Shown: positions 16,276-46,638 of the stretch, in pieces
How the letters are laid out: each line of letters starts with the position of its first letter
Numbering within the stretch: position 1 is the stretch's first letter
Assembly: GCA_050298595.1 (NCBI GenBank)
Contig: JBNKUM010000062.1
Location: forward strand, 1-64,000
Direction: 5' to 3'
Source of the DNA: Gammaproteobacteria bacterium
GTDB lineage: Bacteria; Pseudomonadota; Gammaproteobacteria; GCA-001735895
Length of the DNA: 64,000 nt
The notes under the pieces: generated by a model
What the model was told of the DNA's origin: nothing
Seen by the model: the letters and a program-made list of their open reading frames with translations, nothing else
Databases searched by the model: none
Position numbers and translations under genes: made by a program

Positions 16276-16602
16276 ATGAATGAATCTGATTTTAACCAGC
16301 TGGCCGAGCAAACGATGATGGATATTGAACAGGCCATCGAAGATAGTGGTGCCGAGATCGACTACGATACCATCAGCGAAATACTGACGCTGGAATTTGA
16401 AAACGGTAGTCGTATCATCATCAATAAGCAGACCCCGGTATCCCAGCTATGGGTGGCGGCTAAATCAGGTGGATTTCATTTTGATTATGATGACGCAAGC
16501 CAGAGCTGGCGTCTGGATAGTAATCCCGATGAGGAGTTGTTTACCTGCCTGAGTCGTTACTGTAGTGAACAGGCAGGTGAGTCGGTTGAATTGACCCGCT
16601 AG
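16276..16602 (+). CDS. cyaY: Iron donor protein CyaY (frataxin)
   Basis: IIINKQTP..QLWVAAKSGGFHF. Confidence 0.95.
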   Translation: MNESDFNQLAEQTMMDIEQAIEDSGAEIDYDTISEILTLEFENGSRIIINKQTPVSQLWVAAKSGGFHFDYDDASQSWRLDSNPDEELFTCLSRYCSEQAGESVELTR

Positions 16603-18716
16603 AACTGGTAAGTGTAGCCAAGGAACAGACTATAAAACATCTGATCATTTCGATCAGGTAAATCAAAATTTGAATACTCGATACCTACACTTGCTTCCAG
16701 ATTTAGTTTTTTCATCGGTTTATAACTGACCTTAAAACTTGGATTGATTATGTACTGATCATCGTTGGTGATCTTACTGGAACGAAAATCTATCCTGATT
16801 CTGGGGTCATAGCGCAGGCTCTTGATACTGCTGCTCTGAATCCGGGTGCGGCCCCTGAAAGATGTGGTTTCTGACGAAGCAGTATCCGATATTCTAACAC
16901 CAACGGTGGTGTAGTCCTTTTCCGTAAAAAATCCACGAATCGTATAGTCGCCAGAGATATAGATGTTCTCAGTTGCTTCGATCGCATCAATGGCCGGTGT
17001 AGTCGCTGTTGCCGCCGACGCTTCAGTTGCCTCTATGGAGGATAAGGAAAGGCTCAGATAGATCTGACTGTTGTCGTCGATGACGTAAGTCGAGCCGGCA
17101 AATAAATTCGTGCTTTTGCTGGTACGATCTTCAGCCAGCTGATAGATCTGCTCGTCACTTAGGCCTGTTTTAGTTTTTAATTCATCTAATGTTTCTACAC
17201 CCTGAGCCTGAATGGCATTGGTGGTAGTGAGTAGCGGTGAGTTTCTGTGATCAAGAGTCAGGTTAAAAAATAATTTGTCACTGTGGCGGTAGTTGGTAAT
17301 TGCGGTGACATTGTTTAGATCATTATAGAATATGTCATAGTCGATGATTCCGTAGACAAACCCACGGTTTGTGCGGTACTGAAATTCGGTACCTATTGCC
17401 TGTCGGTCAGTGAGGCCTGCATTGCTTTGTTGAATCAGGTAATAGTCCATATCAAATTCTTTTGAAAACTTGAGATTAATGTTACCACCAAAAAAAACGC
17501 GTTCCGTATTCAGTGAATCATAGGATGATATAACAGGATAACCGGTAAACAGGCTGTATCCAAAGTCAGGATTTGAAATGTCTTTGTAGACTACCCCATC
17601 AAAACGTCCCAATACTCCTTTTGCAGTTAAACTCTGGCGTCCACCTATAATCTGGAACTCACCTTCATTACTGATGTAATTCACCATGGCTCGACTGATT
17701 CTGCCCTGGTTATCACTGTCCAGAAAATCAGTTATGATGCCTCCGTCAAATTTTATGACCAGAGAGTGTTTTTCAGTTTTTTTACGGGCAAATAGATTGA
17801 TATCACTGACAAGGGCATTATTCAATTCTTCTGAACTCAGCGTATCTATAGCCAGAATATCATTTCGATAGTATTGAGAAACAGAGCCTGATAGATGCCA
17901 GTCATCGGGGTTGCTTTTAGTCTTTTCCTCGCTCAGACGTTTTCTGGGTTCGACGTGCATGGTTTTAAGGCCTTCAAGCCGGCTTTTGATTTTAGGAGCA
18001 TTTTCACTGTCCGGGTAGCGCGCCAGAAACTGGCTGTATATGGCGATAGCCTGAGGAATTTTCTGTTGTCTTTCACGCGCAATACCTGAGTATTCAAGCG
18101 CTTGCTGTTGCTGTTCTAAATTTCCGATTTCACCAACTTTTCCCGCTATAGCGAGCACTCTGGCGTAATTTTGATCGAGGAACATCTGTTTTGCATCCTG
18201 CAGTAATTTGTCTGCAAGTGATTCATTTTTAGTGACTGGTGGACGTTGGATAGCCGGCTTAGCGATGCTCACAGCAGGAATGGGTGCTATGACGACAGGT
18301 GCAGACAGCTCAACTGGAGGTTTTGTTTTTAACAGGCGTGCCGACAGGGCTGAAATTTCAGCTTTGCTACGGAAGTTTATCCAGGCGCTTGGATAGGTGT
18401 GTTTCAGCTTTTGTAGTTGAGTATCTGCATCCTCTTGCGTTTCGTAGTTACCTATCGTAAGGCGGTAGTAGGTTTTATTATTTACATTGACCTTGTTTAA
18501 ATAAATAAGCTCATTACTGCTACTGGAAAGGATTTTAATATCACTTTCTGGGATTTTTTTTCCGGATGATGAAAGGTTTATTGAGTAGGGGTGGATAATC
18601 GTTATCTGCGCAGGCTGAGTATAAATAGTATCCACGCCTGAATATTCGCTCTTTGCTGCGAACAACAGGTTAGGAATCAACACCAGCAAATATAGGTAAT
18701 TCTTTAAATTTGGCAT
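16599..18716 (-). CDS. Outer-membrane beta-barrel with N-terminal SPOR-like and TPR domains (porin of a porin-cytochrome complex)
   Basis: Signal peptide; YYRLTIGNYET..SAWI SPOR-like; ALEYSGIARERQQK..YPDS TPR; amphipathic beta strands; C-terminal GYTYQF. Confidence 0.8.
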   Translation of the reverse strand: MPNLKNYLYLLVLIPNLLFAAKSEYSGVDTIYTQPAQITIIHPYSINLSSSGKKIPESDIKILSSSSNELIYLNKVNVNNKTYYRLTIGNYETQEDADTQLQKLKHTYPSAWINFRSKAEISALSARLLKTKPPVELSAPVVIAPIPAVSIAKPAIQRPPVTKNESLADKLLQDAKQMFLDQNYARVLAIAGKVGEIGNLEQQQQALEYSGIARERQQKIPQAIAIYSQFLARYPDSENAPKIKSRLEGLKTMHVEPRKRLSEEKTKSNPDDWHLSGSVSQYYRNDILAIDTLSSEELNNALVSDINLFARKKTEKHSLVIKFDGGIITDFLDSDNQGRISRAMVNYISNEGEFQIIGGRQSLTAKGVLGRFDGVVYKDISNPDFGYSLFTGYPVISSYDSLNTERVFFGGNINLKFSKEFDMDYYLIQQSNAGLTDRQAIGTEFQYRTNRGFVYGIIDYDIFYNDLNNVTAITNYRHSDKLFFNLTLDHRNSPLLTTTNAIQAQGVETLDELKTKTGLSDEQIYQLAEDRTSKSTNLFAGSTYVIDDNSQIYLSLSLSSIEATEASAATATTPAIDAIEATENIYISGDYTIRGFFTEKDYTTVGVRISDTASSETTSFRGRTRIQSSSIKSLRYDPRIRIDFRSSKITNDDQYIINPSFKVSYKPMKKLNLEASVGIEYSNFDLPDRNDQMFYSLFLGYTYQF

Positions 18717-18737
18717 AGAAAAAATTCAATATTATTA

Positions 18738-18772
18738 TAAAAACTCTGCAACTTACGCGCTAAGTTGCAGAG
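18738..18772 (-). terminator. Intrinsic terminator-like hairpin between the 14-heme cytochrome and beta-barrel genes
   Basis: CTCTGCAACTTA-CGCGC-TAAGTTGCAGAG perfect 12-bp stem, followed by a T-run on the minus strand. Confidence 0.65.
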
Positions 18773-18787
18773 GCAATCAAGTCTGGT

Positions 18788-19963
18788 TTATCTATCCCAA
18801 CTAGAGTCAGTAACTCTGTGATGAGAGCTATCCTGGTGACAGGCGCCACTACAATCTGCATTTTGTGCAACGGTCTCAAAACCACCGCCAGATGCTTCGT
18901 GTTTATCCTGCTCATAATCCCCGGCATGACAGGCTGCGCATTGTGGTGCATAAGCTGTGTTCCATGATGGTGTCTCATTATTAGTGCCGTGGCAGTCTAT
19001 GCAAGCTGCAGTATTATGACGACCCCCGTCAGGGAAATTGGTGCTGCTATGGCTGTATGTTTTTGGCGTCCAGTTGACGGTGGTATGACAGATTTCACAG
19101 GGTTCAGTTGTAACGAAATGATTGGCTGACTTCCCAGTCGCTGAGACACCATTGTGGCAACTTTCACAATTATCGGTTACAACATCATGAATCCAGGTGC
19201 TATTAGACCAGCTGATGGTGGTATGGCATTCCACACAATCCTTGCTGGTTTGCATATGAGTGGAGGATTTTCCTTCAGCGATAATGCCGTTATGACAGCT
19301 GGAGCAAAAACCAATGACCTGGCTATGATCAACTCTATAGACAGGATTAAAAGTAACAGTCGTGTGGCAATCTTCGCAGTTGTTTGTGCTCTGGATGTGA
19401 TTAGTACTCATGCCAGTGGCGATTACACCATTATGGCAGAGTTGACAGTTACCAGTAATCCCTTCGTGATCAAACACTGCATCCTGCCAGGAGTTTGTGC
19501 GATGACAATTATCGCAGACATCACTACTTTGGATGTGTCCCGGATGTTTGCCAATCGCGACTATTCCATTATGGCAGCTTTGGCATTCCCCGGTGACAGC
19601 AAAATGATCAACTCTGACAACGTTTTCCCAGTTCCCAGTCTGATGACAAAACTCGCAATCATCGGTGGTTCTCATATGCCTGGGTGAAGGAGCACTGGCC
19701 TGAATACGCCCTGAGTTTGAATGGCAGCCACTGCATTGAGTAGGAGTACCTCTAAACACGCCCTGAATATGGCAGGCATCACATTTTTGTCTGGCATGTA
19801 CGATATCTAATGAGAAGTGAGTTTCATCGTGATCAAATCTCTCAGCATTTGCATTATTTATAATGCCCGTTGTTAACAATAATGTGATCAGGATTAACGA
19901 TAAAGTATTCCGCAAGTTTTTTCGGTAATCAGTGATATAAGTGTTAGCAATATTAATTATCAT
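18788..19963 (-). CDS. Multiheme cytochrome c, 13 CxxCH + 1 Cx3CH (putative outer/extracellular component)
   Basis: Manual motif count; signal-like N-terminus; repeated CxxCHNG..A.GK...H..T...CxxCH unit. Confidence 0.92.
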   Translation of the reverse strand: MIINIANTYITDYRKNLRNTLSLILITLLLTTGIINNANAERFDHDETHFSLDIVHARQKCDACHIQGVFRGTPTQCSGCHSNSGRIQASAPSPRHMRTTDDCEFCHQTGNWENVVRVDHFAVTGECQSCHNGIVAIGKHPGHIQSSDVCDNCHRTNSWQDAVFDHEGITGNCQLCHNGVIATGMSTNHIQSTNNCEDCHTTVTFNPVYRVDHSQVIGFCSSCHNGIIAEGKSSTHMQTSKDCVECHTTISWSNSTWIHDVVTDNCESCHNGVSATGKSANHFVTTEPCEICHTTVNWTPKTYSHSSTNFPDGGRHNTAACIDCHGTNNETPSWNTAYAPQCAACHAGDYEQDKHEASGGGFETVAQNADCSGACHQDSSHHRVTDSSWDR

Positions 19964-19986
19964 TATCTGCTCCAGTCAGATGAGAC

Positions 19987-21567
19987 TTAACTTCCAATTC
20001 TTCGGCCATTCATATTGATGTCTTTAAAGTCATCAATGGAATGACACTCATCGCAATAAGGGCCAAAGCTACCTTCGTGGATATCGTCCCGGTAATGGCA
20101 GTCGATACAGCGGCTTTTCATTTTCTCATCTTTATCCAGCGGTTTGAAATGACAGGCGTGACAATGTAGATTTTTATGAGCACCTCTAATCTTGAAGTCG
20201 GTTTCGTCATGATCAAATTTCCAGATCAGCCAGTCGTTAGGGTTGTGGCACTGTTTACAATCATCGCCCAGGGCTTTTTCGTGTACATCGTCTTCCTGAT
20301 GGCAGTTTATACATTCAGACTTGGTATCCTTAAATTTAGAGGTTAAATGGCAGGATTCACAACCAACGACAGCGTGCTGGCCAATTAGAGGGAAGTCTGT
20401 CAGTTCGTGATCAAAGCGGACATCTTCCATCCACCATGATTTTTCATTATGACAGTCGTCACATTTCTTACCCTCCTGTTCCTTATGCGCATCTTGATGT
20501 TTATGGCAGCTGTGACAGGCTTTGTCAGTTTTTTTACCTTTCTGGTCGGACTGATGACAGGATTGGCAGCTGGCTTTTTTATGAGCACCTCTTAAAGGAA
20601 AATCGGTTTTTTCGTGATCAAAGCTGGAGTCAATCCAGCTGGTTTCATTGTGACATTTGTCACATTTTTTCTCATTTTTCCCTTTATGCACATCATCCAG
20701 TCGATGGCAGCTGTAACAGTCACGAGGCTTTTGTTTACCCTTAGACTTTTTCTTTTTACTGTCTTCGATGGTATGGCAGGTATGGCAGGTGGTCGCTTTA
20801 TGCTTACCCTTTAATTTGAAATCCGTATCCCGGTCGTGGTCAAATTTTGTCTTGTCCCACTTCTCTTCTGTATGACAATCCTGACACTTTTTTCCGAATC
20901 GATTTTGATGCACGTCTTTGATGGCGTGGCATGAAAAACATTCTTTAGGGGTGTCTTTATACTGGTTTTCTACATGGCATAAATCGCAGGCGACTTTTTT
21001 ATGGGCGTGTTTTAATTTAAAGTCAGTCTTGTCATGATCAAACTGTTCGCTACTCCAGCCTTTAGGATTGTGACAAGTTTCACATTTTTTCCCCAGCTTG
21101 GTTTTATGGGAGTCATCATCCTCATGACAGGAAAAGCACTTATCTGGTGCTTCACGATATTTTTTGTCTTCTTTATGACAGCCTGAGCAGTCTGCCTGTG
21201 CATGTTTGCCTTCTAGAGGATAATCGGTAGATTTATGATCAAAGCGGTCTTTATCCAGCCATATGACAACGGCATCCCTACCTTTATGCTCGGTATGGCA
21301 AACACGACATTCAACGCCAATAACCTGCTTATCTAAACCATGAAAACCCTGTTTGGCGTTTACATCGTCAGCAACCTTTTCATGGCAATCCAGGCAAAGT
21401 TTTCGCTGAGTCTTTCCATGTAATCGGACATGACAACTTTCACATTTTAACTCGTATTCTGCATGCCCCTCGATGACTTTTCCTGGCATGAACAGCTTTT
21501 CAAAGTCCATAGCCTGTGCCATCTGAGGCAGCAGGGCGAAAAAAAACAGCGTGAGTAATAACTTCAT
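19987..21567 (-). CDS. Multiheme cytochrome c, 21 CxxCH (periplasmic, triheme repeats)
   Basis: Manual motif count 21; signal peptide ..AQA; repeats FDH..T.F.L.G.H..CxxCH..CxxCH..DxH..CxxCH. Confidence 0.93.
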   Translation of the reverse strand: MKLLLTLFFFALLPQMAQAMDFEKLFMPGKVIEGHAEYELKCESCHVRLHGKTQRKLCLDCHEKVADDVNAKQGFHGLDKQVIGVECRVCHTEHKGRDAVVIWLDKDRFDHKSTDYPLEGKHAQADCSGCHKEDKKYREAPDKCFSCHEDDDSHKTKLGKKCETCHNPKGWSSEQFDHDKTDFKLKHAHKKVACDLCHVENQYKDTPKECFSCHAIKDVHQNRFGKKCQDCHTEEKWDKTKFDHDRDTDFKLKGKHKATTCHTCHTIEDSKKKKSKGKQKPRDCYSCHRLDDVHKGKNEKKCDKCHNETSWIDSSFDHEKTDFPLRGAHKKASCQSCHQSDQKGKKTDKACHSCHKHQDAHKEQEGKKCDDCHNEKSWWMEDVRFDHELTDFPLIGQHAVVGCESCHLTSKFKDTKSECINCHQEDDVHEKALGDDCKQCHNPNDWLIWKFDHDETDFKIRGAHKNLHCHACHFKPLDKDEKMKSRCIDCHYRDDIHEGSFGPYCDECHSIDDFKDINMNGRRIGS

Positions 21568-21570
21568 AGA

Positions 21571-22362
21571 TTAATAAAAATGGACGACGACAACGTGGGT
21601 TATACCAGATACTACTAGCAAAATGAAAAGTGGAAAATGCAGAATATGCCAGTAGGAGAACAGTATCTCATTAATACCCAGAGTGCAGATTGAGCGCAGT
21701 CCCCAGACTCGATCAAGAAAGTTTCTGCGATCATCAGAAGGCTTATATTGTTTCAGTACCCTGGATTTTAAATTTTTCAGTTTCCAGCGGTTTGAAAGGT
21801 AAAACCAGAGGGATCGGTTTATTCCTGTATGCTGAACCACAAGATTTTCTTCTATTTTTTTTAATTCTTCAGAGAGCTCTGGGGTCTGAAGAGATATAAT
21901 CTCGAATTCATGACTTTCATCGTCAAGATTACTGTATAGGTCTTTAAAGCGAATTTTCCCACCGTATAAACCGTAGTGAATTCTACGGTATAAGTAGCGA
22001 CCAATGAGCCCGCTGGAAGCTACAATCAGCATGCAGGTAAAGGCGACTGTGCCATTTATAGAAGCCAGTCGATAGCCAGAATGGAATATGATCAGTACAG
22101 GACCGAGGATGCCAAGAATCATGTGAAAGCGAAACCAGAACCTTATAGAACCGAGAAAGGTCCAGTTAGTTTTTTGCTTACGCAAGGGGTATACAAGCAG
22201 GAGCAGCATCATTGATCCACCGATAATGCCGAGCCAGTAACCAATGCCTGATTCAGCCACAATGTAACGGTGGTCGGAAACTGTCCAGCCTAAATAGATA
22301 ACTGCTACTACACTTGTGTACCAGAGTAGAGCAAGGGCATTAAGTGCGAATCGTATAACCAT
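21571..22362 (-). CDS. Inner-membrane protein with His-bearing TM helices (ferric-reductase/cytochrome b-like)
   Basis: About 5 TM; WFRFHMILG, IIFHSG, SGLIGRYLY, WHILHFP, THVVVVHFY. Confidence 0.75.
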   Translation of the reverse strand: MVIRFALNALALLWYTSVVAVIYLGWTVSDHRYIVAESGIGYWLGIIGGSMMLLLLVYPLRKQKTNWTFLGSIRFWFRFHMILGILGPVLIIFHSGYRLASINGTVAFTCMLIVASSGLIGRYLYRRIHYGLYGGKIRFKDLYSNLDDESHEFEIISLQTPELSEELKKIEENLVVQHTGINRSLWFYLSNRWKLKNLKSRVLKQYKPSDDRRNFLDRVWGLRSICTLGINEILFSYWHILHFPLFILLVVSGITHVVVVHFY

Positions 22363-22506
22363 GAGTTCTATAAAAAATGTTAAAATAAGTCTAGCTTATT
22401 GAATATATCAGATATATGAGTTTTATTGGGAATATATTACCATATATATGTTAAAATTCTCTTAAGCACATCACTAACTTTACCACGGATTAACCCATAT
22501 TTTCTC

Positions 22507-23808
22507 ATGGACACTGTCTATTATTTTGTCCCTTTTATTCTCTTCATGCTGGGATATGCATGGAGGGCGCATCGTCGTCAACGCCAGAGCGAAATAGTTC
22601 GGCAGGAAGCAATAGAAACTGGACTGGCCGAACCCGCATCGTTACACCCCATTATTGATCGAAATAAATGCATAGGCTGCAAGTCCTGTGTTTATGCCTG
22701 TCCGCAACAGATTGGACATAATGTGCTGGGTATTTTTCATGGCAAGGCTGAGTTACTTGAGCCAGCAAATTGTATCGGTCATGGTGCCTGTAAGACGGTT
22801 TGTCCTGAAAATGCGATTACTTTAGTTTTTGGTACCGAGAAGCGTGGTGTTGATATCCCCTTGATTGGAGAAGACTTTGAAACTAATGTCAAAGGTATTT
22901 ATATTGCCGGTGAGCTGGGCGGTATGGGATTGATCCGTAATGCTATCGAACAGGGTAAATCGGCAATGAAATCTATTCTGTCGTCCTTGCCCAAAAATAG
23001 TAGCCACCCATATCAGGTGATTATAGTTGGAGCTGGCCCTGCAGGGATTGCTTCTTCGCTGGCTGCACAGGAGGCGAAAATAAAATACCTGACACTCGAT
23101 CAGGACTCTCTAGGCGGGACAGTTTTTCAATACCCAAGGGGGAAGATCGTTATGACCCAGCCAGTGGATTTACCTCTGGTTGGCAAGATGCATTTCAAAG
23201 AAACAACCAAAGAGGAATTACTGGAGTTCTGGCAAGGAGTTGAACAAAAGACAGCGATTAAGGTCAATTACCAAGAAATTGTAGCTGGTATAGAAGTTTT
23301 GAGTGCAGGGTTTAAGGTTAAGACCAATAAGGGCGAATATGAAACAGATACTGTGTTGCTTGCCATAGGTCGGCGTGGTACTCCTCGAAAACTCGGTATT
23401 CCGGGTGAGGAGTTATCCAAGGTCGTTTATCGATTGATTGATCCCGCCCAGTATGAAAATCAAAAGGTCATGATAGTCGGTGGTGGAGACTCCGCCCTTG
23501 AAGCTGCATTAGCAATTGCGGATGAAAAAGGAACTGAGGTTTCCGTTTCTTACCGCAGTGAAAGCTTTTCGCGCGCCAAAGCTAAAAATCGTGAGCGGAT
23601 AGACAGCTATGCCAGTGAGGGAAAGATTAAACTTTATCTCAAATCAAGCCCTAAACAAATCAGCAAGAACAGTATCACCCTGAAAATAAATGATCAGGAT
23701 ATTGAAGTTCCAAACGATGCTGTGATTATTAACGCTGGCGGCATTTTGCCTACCGGGTTCCTGAAACAGATTGGTATAGAGGTTGAGACCAAATACGGAA
23801 CAGCTTAA
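22507..23808 (+). CDS. Membrane-anchored ferredoxin-domain FAD/NAD(P)H oxidoreductase (TrxR/YpdA-like)
   Basis: N-terminal TM; CIGCKSCVYACP and CIGHGACKTVCP; GIYIAGE, VGAGPAG, VGGGDSA..SYR; start re-called to ATG 22507. Confidence 0.85.
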   Translation: MDTVYYFVPFILFMLGYAWRAHRRQRQSEIVRQEAIETGLAEPASLHPIIDRNKCIGCKSCVYACPQQIGHNVLGIFHGKAELLEPANCIGHGACKTVCPENAITLVFGTEKRGVDIPLIGEDFETNVKGIYIAGELGGMGLIRNAIEQGKSAMKSILSSLPKNSSHPYQVIIVGAGPAGIASSLAAQEAKIKYLTLDQDSLGGTVFQYPRGKIVMTQPVDLPLVGKMHFKETTKEELLEFWQGVEQKTAIKVNYQEIVAGIEVLSAGFKVKTNKGEYETDTVLLAIGRRGTPRKLGIPGEELSKVVYRLIDPAQYENQKVMIVGGGDSALEAALAIADEKGTEVSVSYRSESFSRAKAKNRERIDSYASEGKIKLYLKSSPKQISKNSITLKINDQDIEVPNDAVIINAGGILPTGFLKQIGIEVETKYGTA

Positions 23809-25784
23809 TGACTAACTTAAAGATATTAATAATTGCTTTCACCCTGTTTTTTTTAATTACTCCAGAGTTGCAGGCAGATAGTAAACAGCAGCTACAGGAA
23901 ATCAGTAAATCGATTCGTGTCAGAGATTACAGCAAGGCTGTTAAGCAGCTAAAACCTCTGATCAGGTCAGGAGATTCGGAAGCTCAATTTTTGCTGGCAG
24001 GGCTGTATCGCTCAGGCAAGGGAGTAGAAAAGAACCTGGATAAAGCGATAGAACTCTATGAAAAAGCCTCTAATAATGGGCATGTAGATGCTCAATATAC
24101 GCTAGCTTCTTTACTGGAAAAAAGGGGAGATATTTCTCAGGCCTTATTCTGGTATCAACAGGCATCTGAACAGGGGCATAGAAAAGCCCTGAAAAAACTG
24201 AAAGCTGCGCAGAAGTCTCGCGAATCATTTAGCAATGAAGATATTAATGCGGATTCAGTTTTTAGCTCGATTGTTCATAATGATATCAATCTTATTCAAA
24301 CCTATGTTAAGAATGGTTATAACTTTAATATTCAGGACAGATCTTCGCGCTCACCTTTGATCGCAGCCCTGCTTGCGGAAAATAAAGAGATAGTTGATCT
24401 ATTACTGCCGGTCACGCAAAATTTAAATCACAGCGATCAAAATAAGAATCAGGCAATTCATATAGCTGTTTCAAATGGCTATGCGGATATTGTTAAAAAG
24501 TTACTCTATAAGAAAGTAGATATTAATGCGCAGGATAACCTGGGTAATACACCATTGCTAATTGCCGTGCGCCATGACGATGCGAAGATGACAGGTCTGC
24601 TTCTACAGAATAAGGCAGATTACAATTTACAAAATAAAAGCAAGGTTTCGGCTATAGAGCTGGCACAAACGAGAGCCGATTCTAATGTATTGAAAACTTT
24701 TGCCAGTCAGGGAATTATAATTGGAAAAAAACAGGATCAATATAACGATGTCAGTATTAAGGATTTCGAAAAATCTATAAGGCAGTCGTCATCATTATAT
24801 AAAGACTGGCCAATTTTGAGTATTGCCTGTTTGTTAGGTGAGAATGATATTGCCCGGCAATTGCTTAAACAGGGGGCTGATGTTAACGCTGTGGATAGTT
24901 CTGGGTACTCTGCCCTGCACAGAGCGAATTCCAAAGATCTGGAAAAAACTGTAAGCCTGTTGCTTGCTTCCGGTGCACAAATCAATATTCAAAATAACAA
25001 AAAAGAAACGCCTTTGTTTTTAGCTGCTGAAGCGGGTAGTTATAAAACGGTTAAACTTTTACTTGCTAAGGGAGCTGATCCGACAATATTGTCATCGAAT
25101 AAAACAAGTGCTTTAGCGGTTGCTATTTCTAATCAGCATAAGGATGTAGCAATGTTGCTGGCTGATAAAAAACTGGATAAGGTTTCTATACATGCTGCAC
25201 TTTTCCTGGCTATCCAAAAAGATATGGAAGAGGTTGCTGTCAAACTCGTGAAGCGCGATGTTTTAATCAATAGCGCGGATGAAAATAAGCGAAGTGTTCT
25301 CTGGTTTAGCGCTGACAAGGGATTTGAAAAAGCAACGGCTAGGATATTGCTAAATAAATCAGTAGATATCGATCAGAAAGATATTAAGGGTTATAGTCCG
25401 TTGGCACGTGCGATTTTAAAGGGGCATAGTGTAATAGCAAAACGATTGATTAATGCAGGTGCTGATGTAAACACTCAAACTAATGAAAAAAACACCTTGT
25501 TGATGCAATCGGTTTTATCTGGCAAACAGGAGATGACCCGGTTGCTGATCGATAGAAAAATTAATATAGATACCAAGAATAACTCGGGTGAAACGGCTCT
25601 GATGCTAGCGGCAGGGATGGGTAATAATGATCTGGTCGAGATGCTGATTGAGGCAGGTGCAGATATAATGACACGAAATCAGGATGAACTCGGCGCCTAT
25701 GATATAGCATTAAAAGCGGGCAAAAAAGATACTGCTGAGTTAATTCGTAATAAAAGCGGCAGGCTATTTAAATTGTTTAATTAG
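23808..25784 (+). CDS. Exported Sel1-repeat plus ankyrin-repeat protein
   Basis: Signal peptide; AQFLLAGLYRSGKGV Sel1 repeats; many GNTPL/GETALM ankyrin repeats; TAATG overlap with the upstream gene. Confidence 0.9.
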   Translation: MTNLKILIIAFTLFFLITPELQADSKQQLQEISKSIRVRDYSKAVKQLKPLIRSGDSEAQFLLAGLYRSGKGVEKNLDKAIELYEKASNNGHVDAQYTLASLLEKRGDISQALFWYQQASEQGHRKALKKLKAAQKSRESFSNEDINADSVFSSIVHNDINLIQTYVKNGYNFNIQDRSSRSPLIAALLAENKEIVDLLLPVTQNLNHSDQNKNQAIHIAVSNGYADIVKKLLYKKVDINAQDNLGNTPLLIAVRHDDAKMTGLLLQNKADYNLQNKSKVSAIELAQTRADSNVLKTFASQGIIIGKKQDQYNDVSIKDFEKSIRQSSSLYKDWPILSIACLLGENDIARQLLKQGADVNAVDSSGYSALHRANSKDLEKTVSLLLASGAQINIQNNKKETPLFLAAEAGSYKTVKLLLAKGADPTILSSNKTSALAVAISNQHKDVAMLLADKKLDKVSIHAALFLAIQKDMEEVAVKLVKRDVLINSADENKRSVLWFSADKGFEKATARILLNKSVDIDQKDIKGYSPLARAILKGHSVIAKRLINAGADVNTQTNEKNTLLMQSVLSGKQEMTRLLIDRKINIDTKNNSGETALMLAAGMGNNDLVEMLIEAGADIMTRNQDELGAYDIALKAGKKDTAELIRNKSGRLFKLFN

Positions 25785-25837: not shown

Positions 25838-26308
25838 GTGGGTAAAAATCGACGTCACCAACTGATCAGAGCTGTTAAGTTTTTAACTCTTCTAGCATTA
25901 ATATTCGTTGTTTTTGTATTTATTGATTATTCTTTTAATCAGGCGAAATTAGATAAGGAATATCGTTTTGAGGTCCCTGATCTAACAGATAATCGACCAG
26001 TAATACTGAATCAGGGATCTATGATTATTGTTATCGCTCATTATAATACCGATATGAACGATCAATTTTCTACAATATCTACGTCTGCATCACGCATCGA
26101 TTCTGAAGGGTATTTTGTGGCTCTGGCTTATGGCACAGATTTAGGTTGCCCGATTCAGCTGGTTAATGATTTTTTTAAAGAAAGTTGTAGTAATGCAATG
26201 TATGATTTACTGGGGCAATCGTTAGATCATGATTCTTATAAGAATCTTGAAATACCTCATTATCGTTGGAATAAAAATTTCACTGCTTTAACCATTTATC
26301 AGGAGTAA
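25838..26308 (+). CDS. Membrane-anchored degenerate Rieske-fold protein
   Basis: N-terminal TM; GTDLGCPI and FKESCSNAMYDLLG resemble the Rieske boxes but lack the cluster ligands. Confidence 0.6.
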   Translation: MGKNRRHQLIRAVKFLTLLALIFVVFVFIDYSFNQAKLDKEYRFEVPDLTDNRPVILNQGSMIIVIAHYNTDMNDQFSTISTSASRIDSEGYFVALAYGTDLGCPIQLVNDFFKESCSNAMYDLLGQSLDHDSYKNLEIPHYRWNKNFTALTIYQE

Positions 26309-26310
26309 CC

Positions 26311-26793
26311 ATGCCTTCATTTGATACTGTATCAGAAATTGATCATCACGAATTGAAGAATGCCATTGATCAGGCAAATCGTGAGATTGGAACACGTTAT
26401 GATTTTAAGGGTGCCAATGCAAAAATCGAGCTGAATGACAAGGAAATTATGTTTCATGCTGAATCACGCTTCCAGTTGCAACAGATGTTTCCCGTGCTGT
26501 TATCTAAAATGGGAAAACGTGGACTTGATATTGAATGTCTGAAAACTGGAGATGTTGTTGAAGCCGCTAAAACTGCGCGCCAACCTATCTTAATTCAGGA
26601 AGGTATAGATAAAGAGATTGGTAAAAAGATCGTCAAATTGATTAAAGAATCTAAATTGAAAGTACAGGCAGCCATTCAGGGAGAGCAGGTGCGCATTACC
26701 GGTAAAAGTCGCGATGATTTACAACAGGCTATGAAGCTCATGAAGGATGGTAATCTGGGTATTCCTCTGCAGTTTAATAATTTTCGCGATTAG
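26311..26793 (+). CDS. yajQ: YajQ nucleotide/c-di-GMP-binding protein
   Basis: MPSFDTVSE, RYDFKG, IQGEQVRITGKSRDDLQ, LQFNNFRD. Confidence 0.96.
   Translation: MPSFDTVSEIDHHELKNAIDQANREIGTRYDFKGANAKIELNDKEIMFHAESRFQLQQMFPVLLSKMGKRGLDIECLKTGDVVEAAKTARQPILIQEGIDKEIGKKIVKLIKESKLKVQAAIQGEQVRITGKSRDDLQQAMKLMKDGNLGIPLQFNNFRD

Positions 26794-45357: not shown

Positions 45358-46638
<1,281 letters not shown>

Follow-up and report, generated by a model that had tools for sequence, protein, structure and literature searches.

Conserved linkage of a membrane-anchored flavoprotein to PCC3 porin-cytochrome genes suggests an electron conduit fed from the cell interior

Is the flavoprotein gene that stands beside a PCC3 porin-cytochrome cluster a partner of that cluster or its neighbor by chance, and, if a partner, in which direction would electrons pass between them? 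The question is raised by a window of 64,000 nucleotides from a gammaproteobacterium (contig JBNKUM010000062.1, positions 1 to 64,000). The portions of the 2023-2026 literature consulted present PCC3 components as still predicted or untested, and the flavoprotein partner goes unmentioned in the portions that concern PCC3. Our verdict is that the locus is an ordinary PCC3 member that carries an under-described, testable input module.

RESULTS

Organization of the locus

All six open reading frames are present with the coordinates, strands, and divergent arrangement that the initial annotation claimed, the minus-strand PCC3 operon spanning 16599-22362 and the plus-strand operon 22507-25784, divergent across 144 bp. 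The features, with the basis of each assignment, are as follows.

16276-16602, flank: cyaY (Pfam)
16599..18716, minus: outer-membrane barrel, the PCC3 "porin," 705 aa (Pfam, AlphaFold model, Foldseek)
18744..18772, minus: hairpin with a 12-bp stem, then a T-run (consensus scan)
18788..19963, minus: multiheme cytochrome c, 391 aa (motif count, Pfam)
19987..21567, minus: periplasmic 21-heme cytochrome c, 526 aa (motif count)
21571..22362, minus: PCC3 inner-membrane protein (IMP), His-rich, 263 aa (motifs, alignment, model)
22363..22506: AT-rich divergent intergenic region, 144 bp, common to both operons
22507..23808, plus: membrane-anchored Fe-S/FAD/NAD(P) flavoprotein, 433 aa (Pfam, NCBIfam, structure match)
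23808..25784, plus: exported Sel1 and ankyrin-repeat protein, 658 aa (Pfam, signal peptide)
25838-26308: orf156, an extra ORF before yajQ
26311-26793, flank: DUF520/yajQ (Pfam)

Judged from sequence and comparison, the region is one six-gene module comprising four PCC3 genes, the flavoprotein gene, and the Sel1/ankyrin gene. Its placement between cyaY and yajQ holds for both flanks, with orf156 additionally lying between the block and yajQ. A consensus scan of the 144-bp intergenic region found no promoter-like consensus site inside it, and the best match to the Fur consensus there was only 11/19.

The PCC3 components

The assignment to PCC3 proposed earlier is borne out by gene content and order and by the IMP, in which both WX3HX13H motifs and SGXXG match the published definition (He et al. 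2017, PMC5566968, in the part consulted). The window's IMP has WX3HX13H at W76 and W238 and SGLIG at 117, a pattern matched by 27 of 29 homologues, and six histidines (H80, H94, H129, H242, H256, and H261) are invariant across the 29 sequences. It contains 10 His and no CXXCH, and its model (pLDDT 82.5) has five transmembrane helices with a helical insert of ~100 aa between TM4 and TM5. Searches for a Pfam family, an NCBIfam family, and a fold match to this IMP gave nothing significant; among the 29 homologues, at E values up to 1, Pfam assigned Ni_hydr_CYTB to one and DUF4405 to one. The conserved bis-His geometry, the sole basis for b-heme, points to a putative di-heme-b transmembrane electron carrier. 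A DsbD-like thiol relay was also considered for the IMP and is ruled out because conserved cysteines are absent.

The 526-aa cytochrome contains 21 CXXCH motifs, as the initial annotation counted. A homologue adjoins the IMP at every one of 29 loci, and in 20 chosen loci the homologues have 21 CXXCH (16 loci) or 24 (4 loci); the median for the PCC3 periplasmic cytochrome is 21 hemes in the part of He et al. 2017 consulted (PMC5566968). The 391-aa cytochrome, which stands where PCC3 clusters encode the "extracellular" cytochrome and matches Pfam Cytochrome_C7 and c3, has 13 CXXCH and one CX3CH, such that its description as a 14-heme protein stands when the CX3CH is counted and falls to 13 on CXXCH alone. 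Homologues in the 20 chosen loci range from 9 to 84 CXXCH, most with one CX3-4CH.

The barrel protein begins with a signal peptide and a SPOR-like domain, which are followed by TPR helices and, at the C terminus, a 22-strand beta-barrel (residues 26-130, 163-251, and 273-704 for the last three in the AlphaFold model, pLDDT 83.4), and Pfam detects SPOR (E 4.8e-07) and TPR_6. Foldseek matches it to outer-membrane barrels at E values of about 1e-10 to 1e-11, including 5ldt (2.6e-11), FimD, OccK, and AlgE, and homologues occur in 18 of the 20 chosen loci. The hairpin at 18744..18772, in the 71-bp gap from the 14-heme cytochrome gene to the barrel gene, is possibly an attenuator or partial terminator.

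The flavoprotein and the Sel1/ankyrin protein

The longest flavoprotein ORF starts at TTG 22426 and encodes 460 aa, but the start is placed at ATG 22507 (433 aa) because this fits the lengths of homologues, mostly 433-436 aa (range 394-448) among the best 120 listed. Given that start, the 144-bp gap reported earlier is correct. From the N terminus, the protein has a transmembrane helix, a conserved linker, a ferredoxin domain with two [Fe-S] clusters, and a YpdA/TrxR-like FAD and NAD(P) domain; basic residues follow the helix, so the body is predicted to face the cytoplasm. Pfam matches are to a Fer4 dicluster and Pyr_redox_3 (E 4.9e-46), the nearest solved structure is 7a7b (E 8e-42), and the score against NCBIfam YpdA is 170.6 bits, below the cut-off of 339.9. 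Invariant residues include GxGxxG at 175-180, GGGD at 325-328, Y349, R350, and R356. All seven cysteines lie within the Fer4 domain, and in one of the two cluster motifs a cysteine is replaced by an almost invariant histidine. The candidate role of disulfide reductase is excluded, since the FAD/NAD(P) domain has no redox cysteine.

The start codon of the Sel1/ankyrin gene shares 1 nt with the stop codon of the flavoprotein gene, and the Sel1/ankyrin product matches Ank_2 (3.8e-64) and Sel1 (5.9e-15) in Pfam. Export, as claimed at the outset, is indicated by a Sec-type signal peptide, found here and in the 19 homologues listed. The gene lies downstream of the flavoprotein gene in 18 of the 20 chosen loci and is present at 65 of 80 flavoprotein loci (the best 80 of at least 600), counts by which it belongs to the module. 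Its most likely role is that of a scaffold or an assembly factor in the periplasm.

Linkage across genomes

Among 400 genomes of the same class, strong matches to the IMP occur in 46, to the flavoprotein in 46, and to both in 42. At 41 of 49 IMP loci, the flavoprotein gene is on the same contig within 20 kb: it is divergent and adjacent (1.5 kb or less) at 32, co-directional and adjacent at 2, and 1.5-20 kb away at 7. It is on another contig at 4 loci, one of which (G120) is the same locus split by contig ends, and was not found at the remaining 4. The reciprocal search, restricted to the best 80 of at least 600 flavoprotein loci, placed an IMP at 67, 63 of them divergent, whereas the flank controls cyaY, yajQ, and orf156 each appeared at 1 of these 80 loci and at none of the 20 chosen loci. 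The synteny with PCC3 homologs on which the proposed pairing depended thus occurs elsewhere, although these linkage counts exaggerate how many independent events there were, because related genomes are not independent. Dozens of families share the arrangement but not the flanking genes, a recurrence that is more than chance.

The linkage also survives rearrangement, with a far-side convergent layout in L052, L067, G120, and G730 and single-operon layouts holding both genes in L101, L105, and L180. In each of the three genomes with two IMPs there are two flavoprotein copies, one beside each IMP. Across 23 triples, the distance-matrix correlation was 0.71 for the IMP and the flavoprotein, a value reached in 0 of 2,000 permutations, versus 0.42 for the IMP and its 21-heme neighbor. 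In a genome of the same family (G319), ligA-orf111-msrB-cyaY-orf156-yajQ is collinear with the window and the module is absent between cyaY and orf156; the six genes therefore behave as one insertable block. By these comparisons, the flavoprotein is a conserved PCC3 partner, inherited with the cluster, and not a chance neighbor.

Loci with a missing or broken flavoprotein also occur. It was not found in four IMP-bearing genomes (G338, G238, G099, and G266), of which G338 has a complete PCC3 without it (L046) and G238 only an IMP and Sel1/Ank (L106). In G319, the nearest family member, it is N-terminally truncated (218 aa), and in G044 (one contig) a single TGA splits it in two; in both genomes the other genes of the cluster look intact. 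Fusion of the flavoprotein to the IMP, another sign of partnership that had been suggested, was seen neither among the best 120 flavoprotein homologues listed nor in a search for longer IMPs, whose three matches had no flavoprotein domain.

DISCUSSION

A proposed path for electrons

Functional coupling of the flavoprotein to PCC3 is probable. Its co-travel with the cluster, as a membrane-anchored protein of the NAD(P)H type, suggests that the PCC3 wire is fed from the cell interior and not from quinones, and we infer direct NAD(P)H-to-heme transfer, outward flow, and a bypass of quinones. NAD(P)H would reduce the FAD, and electrons would then cross the two Fe-S clusters, one of which has the nearly invariant His ligand of a kind found at electron exit sites, to the b-heme on the cytoplasmic side of the IMP (H80/H242). 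From there they would traverse the membrane to the periplasm-side b-heme (H94/H256) and continue along the 21-heme and 14-heme cytochromes and through the barrel to an extracellular acceptor. Flow would be outward, aided by the membrane potential, and energy would not be conserved.

Inward passage across an inside-negative membrane, from potentials in the Fe(II) range to NAD(P)+, would be strongly uphill, which on bioenergetic grounds speaks for the outward direction. An NAD(P)H-fed outward conduit is the best overall explanation of the module, though we hold it to be only as probable as not. Direct transfer from Fe-S to heme b is slightly favored, and outward flow as the main mode is tentative, falling just short of an even chance. 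As proposed, the module would resemble an NADPH oxidase or ferric reductase that is split into parts and spans the envelope, and not a quinone-linked Fe(II) oxidase. An outward, energy-dissipating role would be odd for a machine needing about 37 hemes.

Alternative explanations

The published model has PCC3 as an inward conduit from extracellular Fe(II), Mn(II), or minerals, with the IMP a quinone-reactive cytochrome b and the flavoprotein and Sel1/ankyrin protein accessory (regulation or repair). He et al. (PMC5566968, in the part consulted) cite cytochrome-b-like HX13H pairs and occurrence in Fe(II) oxidizers; one of 29 IMPs weakly matches Ni_hydr_CYTB (E 0.0013), and some PCC3 loci have a missing or broken flavoprotein. 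Published expression, as far as the consulted parts of the reports extend, is divided. In Sideroxydans sp. CL21, iron-oxidizing cells show significantly higher expression of the IMP gene from PCC3 copy 2, a rise that fits the inward model and counts against the outward one. In S. lithotrophicus ES-1, both PCC3 clusters are down on Fe(II), and the authors conclude that, in the conditions they used, neither cluster takes part in Fe(II) oxidation (PMC8788666). Moreover, most named holders among the best 80 of at least 600 loci are not known Fe(II) oxidizers (Steroidobacteraceae, Woeseiaceae, Thiodiazotropha, Bradyrhizobium, and Methylococcaceae), and the model leaves unexplained why the flavoprotein is kept beside the IMP through rearrangements with copy number matched. 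We regard it as unlikely.

Still less probable is that the flavoprotein-IMP pair serves in maturation or maintenance, drawing on reducing power from the cytoplasm to hold the very long heme chains, or the precursors of heme and apoprotein, in the reduced state while they are assembled or following oxidative damage; the working flux would then take another route. The probable periplasmic scaffold in the module and the dispensability of the flavoprotein in some lineages agree with this, as do ccm-like genes (CcmF, CcmG, CcmH, CcmE, and CcmC, judged from N-terminal sequence only) between or beside the two genes in L048, L057, and L051. That association was seen in only these three inspected loci, however, and an IMP devoid of conserved cysteines offers no thiol relay. 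Such a device would also require the same NAD(P)H-to-heme path, differing in purpose with identical wiring.

Uptake, in which electrons from outside would run inward to NAD(P)+ itself and so supply autotrophs with reducing power while sparing them reverse electron transport, is very unlikely. The chain is formally reversible, and many holders are sulfur- or iron-oxidizing autotrophs or symbionts, according to record titles and the consulted part of He et al. (PMC5566968). Inward movement would nevertheless oppose the membrane potential, and Fe(II), sulfide, and mineral donors should have potentials well above that of the NAD(P)+/NAD(P)H couple. A coupling site, such as a proton channel or a bifurcating second flavin, is not evident, and the flavoprotein has a single FAD motif set and no second substrate domain. 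The uptake option of the initial annotation is thus disfavored on general bioenergetic grounds, and its "sqr-bearing" link is weak: the sqr-like ORF (45367-46638) lies at a distance of 20 kb, and its score of 123 bits is far below the family cut-off of 525. The earlier interpretation holds in part, in the PCC3 identity and in the partnership of the flavoprotein and Sel1/ankyrin protein.

That the flavoprotein-Sel1/ankyrin operon is an unrelated neighbor, as separate transcription of the two operons in the window might imply, is highly improbable and already contradicted by the linkage counts in both directions, as well as by the single-operon layouts and the insertion of the block as a unit relative to G319, and protein identities of 35-60% exclude one recent clone.

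Related loci

A design parallel to that of PCC3 with its flavoprotein is seen at a PCC4-like locus, which has genes of the Pyr_redox_3, cNMP/Fer4, and IMP-like types. Elsewhere in the genome of the window, a gene for a TM-anchored FNR-type FAD/NAD/[2Fe-2S] reductase is followed by one for a 197-aa IMP-like protein, with two HX13H and SGXXG, and then by an octaheme cytochrome gene. Inspection of the best 5 of 29 loci showed these three genes to be conserved together.

A PCC3 cluster with an under-described input module

The locus is an ordinary member of PCC3, a predicted class of porin-cytochrome clusters, and it comes with an under-described input module. All six open reading frames (ORFs) of the initial annotation were recovered at their coordinates:

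16599-25784, both strands, the six-gene module, between cyaY (16276-16602) and orf156 (25838-26308), the latter followed by yajQ (26311-26793)
Minus strand, barrel protein, 705 aa; Pfam SPOR and TPR; its model (pLDDT 83.4) combines a SPOR-like domain and TPR helices with a 22-strand barrel at the C terminus
Minus strand, cytochrome, 391 aa; 13 CXXCH motifs and one CX3CH
Minus strand, cytochrome, 526 aa; 21 CXXCH motifs
21571-22362, minus strand, His-rich inner-membrane protein (IMP), 263 aa; 10 His, no heme-c motif, no Pfam or NCBIfam family
Plus strand, flavoprotein; Fer4 dicluster domain and Pyr_redox_3 domain (Pfam)
Plus strand, Sel1 and ankyrin protein, 658 aa

The longest ORF for the flavoprotein starts at a TTG codon at 22426. 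Because lengths of 433 to 436 aa are typical among its 120 best listed homologues, the start is placed at the ATG at 22507, and with this start the divergent gap is the 144 bp originally reported. The stop codon of the flavoprotein gene shares 1 base with the start codon of the Sel1/ankyrin gene.

He, Barco, Emerson & Roden (2017, PMC5566968) defined PCC3 as a cluster in which a porin is accompanied by two multiheme cytochromes, one extracellular and one periplasmic, and by a conserved IMP. According to the text of that paper, the periplasmic cytochrome has a median of 21 hemes (published values of 21, 24 and 27), the extracellular cytochrome has 10 to 35, and the IMP, of ~300 aa, has five transmembrane (TM) helices, of which TM4 bears SGXXG and TM3 and TM5 each bear WX3HX13H (PMC5566968). 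The four minus-strand genes, which had been likened to PCC3 by their layout, agree with this definition in gene content, heme motifs, and barrel model and fold matches. The same four genes stand in the same order (porin, extracellular cytochrome, 21-heme periplasmic cytochrome, IMP) as in PCC3, of which Slit_0867-0870 and Slit_1446-1449 of Sideroxydans lithotrophicus ES-1, compared here by description, are examples (the Gallionellaceae pangenome is PMC9900912). Heme numbers in the window lie inside the published ranges, and the IMP motifs (two WX3HX13H and one SGXXG) are identical. The periplasmic cytochrome has 21 CXXCH motifs in the window, and its homologues have 21 in 16 loci and 24 in 4. 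The 391-aa cytochrome is the putative extracellular subunit, judging by its signal-peptide-like N terminus and its gene adjoining the barrel gene. Foldseek matched the barrel model to outer-membrane barrels at E values of about 1e-10 to 1e-11; its 22 modelled strands compare with the "up to 42" predicted transmembrane regions of the PCC3 paper. A locus from a Gallionella sp. metagenome-assembled genome (MAG) has the same layout, including the divergent flavoprotein, with identities to the window's proteins of 44% for the 21-heme cytochrome, 35% for the IMP, 25% for the barrel and 54% for the flavoprotein. PCC3 as published has four genes, with the IMP wired to the quinone pool, and the published text examined leaves the flavoprotein and the Sel1/ankyrin protein unmentioned.

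Several minor features accompany these genes. A hairpin with a T-run (18744-18772, minus strand; 12-bp stem with 5 G-C pairs) lies between the 14-heme cytochrome and barrel genes and might set the cytochrome:barrel ratio. In a promoter and terminator scan, promoter-like sites were no commoner than in shuffled sequence (19 versus a mean of 24), and none lay in the 144-bp gap. The idea of a Fur box, as expected of an iron-regulated assimilatory reductase, was rejected as evidence; the 100 related loci scanned have no consistent site. Against the E. coli Fur consensus, the best match in the 64-kb window is 16/19, at 19949-19967, where the 14-heme cytochrome gene has its start codon; a near relative (locus L107) has 14/19 at the corresponding site, and the window's divergent intergenic region reaches 11/19. 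Elsewhere, the PCC3 "extracellular" cytochrome can be very large: in locus L048 (12328-20000; G302:C17) the ORF exceeds 2,557 aa, has at least 84 CXXCH motifs and extends past the fetched stretch, and in locus L049 it has 67 CXXCH motifs. Both match giant forms noted in the text of He et al. (PMC5566968).

The flavoprotein travels with the IMP across genomes

Linkage was counted in three ways, each with its own starting point: from the IMP, by co-occurrence, and from the flavoprotein. PCC3 is widespread, with a strong IMP match (E <=1e-20) in 46 of the 400 same-class genomes sampled and scored, the window's own genome excluded. Within 1.5 kb on either side of the 29 best IMP loci, a flavoprotein homologue (50 to 72% identity) adjoins the IMP in 23, and a 21-heme-type cytochrome stands on its other side in all 29. 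Co-occurrence, which the initial annotation had put forward as a check, bears out the association: strong flavoprotein matches (E <=1e-85) also number 46 genomes, 42 of them shared with the IMP set. Four genomes have the IMP only (G099, G238, G266 and G338) and four the flavoprotein only (G072, G181, G204 and G251), although G072 has a partial IMP match adjacent on the same contig. Among 49 IMP loci, the flavoprotein is adjacent (<=1.5 kb) and divergent in 32, adjacent and co-directional in 2, at 1.5 to 5 kb in 3, at 5 to 20 kb in 4, on another contig in 4, and not found in 4; one of the "other contig" cases (G120) is a single locus split at contig ends.

The reciprocal search started from the flavoprotein, whose relatives in named species-representative genomes number at least 600 and come from symbionts, sediment heterotrophs, methanotrophs and iron oxidisers, among others. 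In the best 80 of these loci, the IMP is present in 67 (63 divergent), the 21-heme-type cytochrome in 67, the Sel1/ankyrin gene in 65 and the barrel in 41; several of the 13 loci lacking the IMP end close to the flavoprotein gene. The flanking genes cyaY, orf156 and yajQ served as a control and were found at 0 of 20 chosen loci and at 1 of the 80 reciprocal loci, the lone case being a near relative with 88 to 90% identity. Those 20 loci, of 20 kb each, were picked from the 46 genomes for long contigs, with apparent exceptions included on purpose, and contain the flavoprotein in 19 and the Sel1/ankyrin gene in 18. Relatedness among the genomes inflates all these counts as a measure of independent events, yet the holders span many families, with protein identities of 35 to 60%. 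By record titles they include Gamma- and Alphaproteobacteria, Gallionella, and MAGs of Myxococcota and Thermodesulfobacteriota. A phylum-level IMP search matched 5 of 401 genomes, too few for a count, and these loci served as examples only.

The association also withstands rearrangement. The flavoprotein-Sel1/ankyrin pair is intact where it is displaced (17 kb off in L047 and 4.7 kb off in L048) and where it lies convergently downstream of the barrel (loci L052 and L067, genomes G120 and G730), and in three loci (L101, L105 and L180) the whole gene set forms one co-directional operon. In all three genomes with two IMP copies there are two flavoprotein copies, one beside each IMP. In a genome of the same family (G319), the genes ligA-orf111-msrB-cyaY-orf156-yajQ-methyltransferase are collinear with the window, with 57 bp between cyaY and orf156, and that genome's own module sits on a different contig. 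Because cyaY is there followed directly by orf156, the block at 16599-25784 corresponds to exactly one insertable unit. The gene orf156 (25838-26308, plus strand) has a single family match, a weak Rieske-type one (E 0.0011); it is probably a backbone gene and not part of the module, since it is kept beside yajQ in G319 (32% identity) and in L107 (80%).

Over 23 triples, the IMP and flavoprotein distance matrices have a correlation of 0.71, a value that 0 of 2,000 label permutations reach; for the IMP and its operon neighbour, the 21-heme cytochrome, the correlation is 0.42, all such correlations being raised by shared phylogeny. When paralogues were swapped in the three two-copy genomes, the true IMP-flavoprotein pairing was favoured in only 4 of 6 rows, a result that is no more than suggestive. 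No fusion of the two proteins, another sign for which a search had been proposed, occurs among the best 120 flavoprotein homologues (394 to 448 aa). A search for longer IMP homologues listed three matches of 469 to 650 aa, all free of flavoprotein domains; one of them, of 650 aa, bears a SPOR domain and may be an IMP-SPOR fusion or a mis-call. As both searches cover top-ranking matches, they are weak evidence against fusions. Prediction of an IMP-flavoprotein complex, run without controls, scored 0.29 against a mark of 0.32, which counts neither for nor against binding; physical contact between the two is a proposal.

Loci with a missing or broken flavoprotein

A complete PCC3 locus in G338 (L046) has neither the flavoprotein nor the Sel1/ankyrin gene, and G238 has the IMP and the Sel1/ankyrin gene with the flavoprotein absent. 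The nearest family member, G319, has a flavoprotein ORF (L033, contig C13, 10687-11343) reduced to the C-terminal 218 aa, without the TM, Fe-S and FAD-binding parts, and in the one-contig genome G044 (L040, C1, 10837-12400) the gene is split into two pieces and has an in-frame TGA. The PCC3 clusters beside these two degraded genes are otherwise intact. Given these exceptions, the flavoprotein is frequent yet dispensable. At some loci, genes resembling those for cytochrome c maturation (CcmF, G, H, E, C, B and A, recognised from N-terminal sequence only) lie between or beside the flavoprotein and IMP genes:

L048, 5424-9462: Ccm-like genes (N-terminal sequence only)
L057, 6489-9516: Ccm-like genes (N-terminal sequence only)
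L051, 12129-15326: Ccm-like genes (N-terminal sequence only)

The IMP as a candidate di-heme-b protein

The IMP of the window carries the motifs W76-x3-H80-x13-H94, S117-G-x-x-G121 and W238-x3-H242-x13-H256. This pattern recurs in 27 of 29 homologues, and in the remaining 2, which gave no match, the wrong ORF was probably taken. H80, H94, H129, H242, H256 and H261 are invariant in the 29 aligned IMPs. The model has five long TM helices and a helical insert at about residues 139 to 205. Basic residues in the window's IMP concentrate after TM2 and within this insert, between TM4 and TM5, which suggests a topology with the N terminus inside and the C terminus outside. On that topology, H80 and H242 would lie near the cytoplasmic face and H94 and H256 near the periplasmic one, an arrangement suited to two stacked b-hemes, and further His residues (invariant H129 and H261 and nearly invariant H239) would lie at the membrane surfaces.

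No Pfam model exists for the IMP family. Among its 29 homologues, Pfam contacts are limited to one with Ni_hydr_CYTB (E 0.0013) and one with DUF4405. A Foldseek search of the model against the PDB returned nothing at E <=0.001, the best match being cytochrome b561 (4o7g) at E 1.4; a VIA-align wide search returned generic helical bundles only, with Z <10; and a sequence profile search of the PDB returned nothing below E 0.2. Among the 120 homologues listed of 2,019, Pfam domains are absent, and the entries are nameless or called "hypothetical protein," bar three apparent misnomers. Public names that seem wrong ("pyridine nucleotide-disulfide oxidoreductase" and "transcriptional regulator") occur among the homologues P0186, P0166, P0212 and P0121.

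Anatomy of the flavoprotein

The flavoprotein begins with a conserved hydrophobic helix followed by a run of Arg and Lys, which by the positive-inside rule places its body in the cytoplasm. In the linker after the helix, G39, P43, S45, H47 and P48 are invariant. The ferredoxin domain (Pfam Fer4_10, Fer4_7 and Fer4_21) has two motifs of the CxxCxxCxxxCP type, as expected of a 2x[4Fe-4S] ferredoxin. Motif 1 has four Cys, the second of which is substituted in 2 of 18 sequences; in motif 2 the second Cys is replaced by His, which all 18 of these sequences share and which is conserved to at least 90% in a set of 38. Two Fe-S clusters, of 4Fe or 3Fe type, are predicted from these motifs. The dinucleotide-binding motifs, G175-x-G-x-x-G180 for FAD and G325-G-G-D328 for NAD(P), are invariant, as are Y349, R350 and R356.

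All seven Cys fall at residues 55 to 99, and the FAD motif has Ala where a Cys would be expected. The confinement of the Cys to the Fe-S domain indicates that the flavoprotein is not a disulfide reductase; its chemistry is plausibly electron transfer between NAD(P)H and the Fe-S clusters. It scores under the cut-off of every curated family (TIGR04018, 170.6 versus 339.9 bits; TIGR01292, 80.1 versus 343 bits). The nearest solved relatives of its FAD/NAD(P) part are YpdA/Bdr (7a7b, 8e-42), low-Mr thioredoxin reductase (TrxR; about 1e-25) and TrxR-like ferredoxin-NADP+ reductases (1e-18 to 1e-20). Between the Fe-S domain and the GxGxxG of the FAD site lies a segment with weak similarity to the "GD" motif for FAD found C-terminally in TrxR and glutathione reductase (E 0.1 to 0.15), a resemblance that is not significant by itself and that suggests a circularly permuted FAD domain.

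Other reductases beside IMP-like proteins

A second module in the window's own genome (contig C85, 12943-15582; L064, 6944-9583) comprises three genes in one operon and no barrel gene. They encode a TM-anchored FNR-type reductase of 420 aa (FAD_binding_6, NAD_binding_1, a weak NOX-type NAD_binding_6 and a C-terminal [2Fe-2S] domain), an IMP-like protein of 197 aa with two HX13H and SGXXG, and an octaheme cytochrome c of 266 aa. This trio is kept in the 5 best of 29 loci examined; the sixth is interrupted by a contig end, and weaker paralogues stand without the trio. A third design is seen in the PCC4-like locus L065 (G176:C4:132000-150000) and in L062 and L063, which have genes for Pyr_redox_3, cNMP-binding/Fer4, IMP-like and multiheme cytochrome proteins. 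In L065 the genes form a single minus-strand run, the IMP-like protein has a weak DUF4405 match, and the multiheme cytochrome has an FHA domain. That flavoproteins of three unrelated architectures occur next to membrane proteins of one kind argues that these IMPs are fed by cytoplasmic NAD(P)H-type reductases. The text of He et al. notes "another redox protein" in PCC4 and "other MHC + short IMP" clusters, not in PCC3 (PMC5566968); in those clusters the IMP subfamilies differ (23 to 33% identity to the window's IMP), as do the flavoprotein folds. In PCC4-like relatives elsewhere, the flavoprotein part lies within ORFs of about 800 aa.

Proposed electron path and comparison with known systems

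Electrons would pass from NAD(P)H to FAD, to the two Fe-S clusters, to a cytoplasm-side heme b and a periplasm-side heme b of the IMP, and then through the 21 c-hemes of the periplasmic cytochrome and 13 to 14 c-hemes within the barrel to an external acceptor. Outward flow would be downhill, and the inside-negative membrane potential would aid it, as it does for NOX, FRE and Dcytb. In the reverse direction, electrons from Fe(II), sulfide or mineral donors would have to reach NAD(P)+ against both the chemical and the electrical gradient, and no coupling device is evident. Because the path would conserve no energy, the expected roles are assimilatory or protective extracellular reduction, superoxide formation, or reductant disposal; respiration is unlikely.

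The proposed electron order follows the logic of NOX and FRE enzymes (ferric reductase domain PF01794), in which cytoplasmic NAD(P)H reduces a flavin and, through it, a stacked pair of b-hemes whose ligands are HX13H pairs from two TM helices, and then an acceptor on the outer side. SpNOX is a bacterial example, and MsrQ with Fre is a two-component one, which is a precedent for dividing the membrane part and the flavin reductase between two polypeptides. The IMP has the His arrangement typical of NOX/FRE, with two invariant HX13H pairs (H80/H94 and H242/H256) and putative heme binding. Unlike those enzymes, it is not a member of PF01794 (0 of 29 homologues at E values up to 1) and has 5 TM helices rather than 6; the reductase of NOX/FRE has an FNR-type fold, whereas the flavoprotein has a YpdA/TrxR-type fold and two predicted Fe-S clusters; and the acceptors of NOX, FRE and MsrQ are O2, Fe(III) chelate and MsrP, whereas here the acceptor would be a 35-c-heme chain through an outer-membrane barrel. 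With YpdA and TrxR the flavoprotein shares the conserved GxGxxG and GGGD motifs. TrxR has a redox CxxC, and YpdA a single Cys inside GxGxxG; the flavoprotein lacks a redox Cys in the flavin domain and adds an N-terminal TM anchor and a 2x[Fe-S] domain. Like MtrCAB, MtoAB and PioAB, the module has a barrel sheathing multiheme cytochromes across the outer membrane and an extracellular cytochrome as in MtrC, but it shows no sequence membership in these families (DmsE/MtrA, 39 versus 192 bits; MtrC, 17 versus 209 bits), and its periplasmic cytochrome has 21 hemes rather than 10. Those systems connect to quinol via CymA or ImoA.

We tentatively advance a joint reading, to which we give somewhat less than an even chance: PCC3 would be not an Fe(II)-oxidising, quinone-linked conduit but the output cable of a split, envelope-spanning analogue of NADPH oxidase and ferric reductase (NAD(P)H, FAD, 2x[Fe-S], di-heme-b IMP and at least 35 c-hemes), with Fe(III), Mn(IV), humics or O2 outside the cell as its acceptors and the quinone pool left out. 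Under the same reading, 5-TM HX13H IMPs in general would be transmembrane electron gates, each supplied with electrons by an NAD(P)H flavo-Fe-S reductase anchored in the membrane, with at least three unrelated architectures recruited independently: permuted TrxR-like with 2x[4Fe-4S], FNR-like with [2Fe-2S], and Pyr_redox_3 with cNMP and Fer4. If true, this would be the first known bacterial route from the pyridine nucleotide pool to the surface that bypasses quinones in a Gram-negative envelope.

Consequences for the interpretation of PCC3

PCC3 routinely counts as a putative marker of iron oxidation, and we know of no experimental test of its function. If the inner end is an NAD(P)H-driven flavoprotein, the system would export electrons outward instead of oxidising Fe(II) for energy, a change in both direction and purpose, and PCC3-based genomic calls of "iron oxidiser" become unsafe. 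Statements in papers of 2023-2026 still term PCC3 "predicted" or "functionally unverified." The PCC3 literature examined, including the main text and supplementary text of He et al., names no flavoprotein, ferredoxin, FAD or ankyrin partner in its text, and figures or preprint supplements might show neighbours. A full-text literature search found no work joining a multiheme cytochrome, ankyrin, a porin and an extracellular electron theme, and none of the matches listed in a search for PCC3 with flavoprotein-type partners contains "PCC3."

Published studies of PCC3 expression give a mixed picture. The two clusters of S. lithotrophicus ES-1 were reported as lower on Fe(II), and the authors assigned them no part in Fe(II) oxidation under their conditions (PMC8788666). 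The PCC3 protein values reported in a magnetite study are low or flat (PMC11429942), and according to the text of a preprint on Sideroxydans CL21, the copy-2 IMP gene is significantly up with iron-oxidising activity.

The initial annotation also described the organism as sqr-bearing. An sqr-like ORF (45367-46638, plus strand) is indeed present, but its membership in SQR is weak (123 versus 525 bits). The single model matched is the selenoprotein subtype of type III SQR, and the ORF lies 20 kb from the module, amid the housekeeping genes uvrB and thrS-infC-rplT-pheST.
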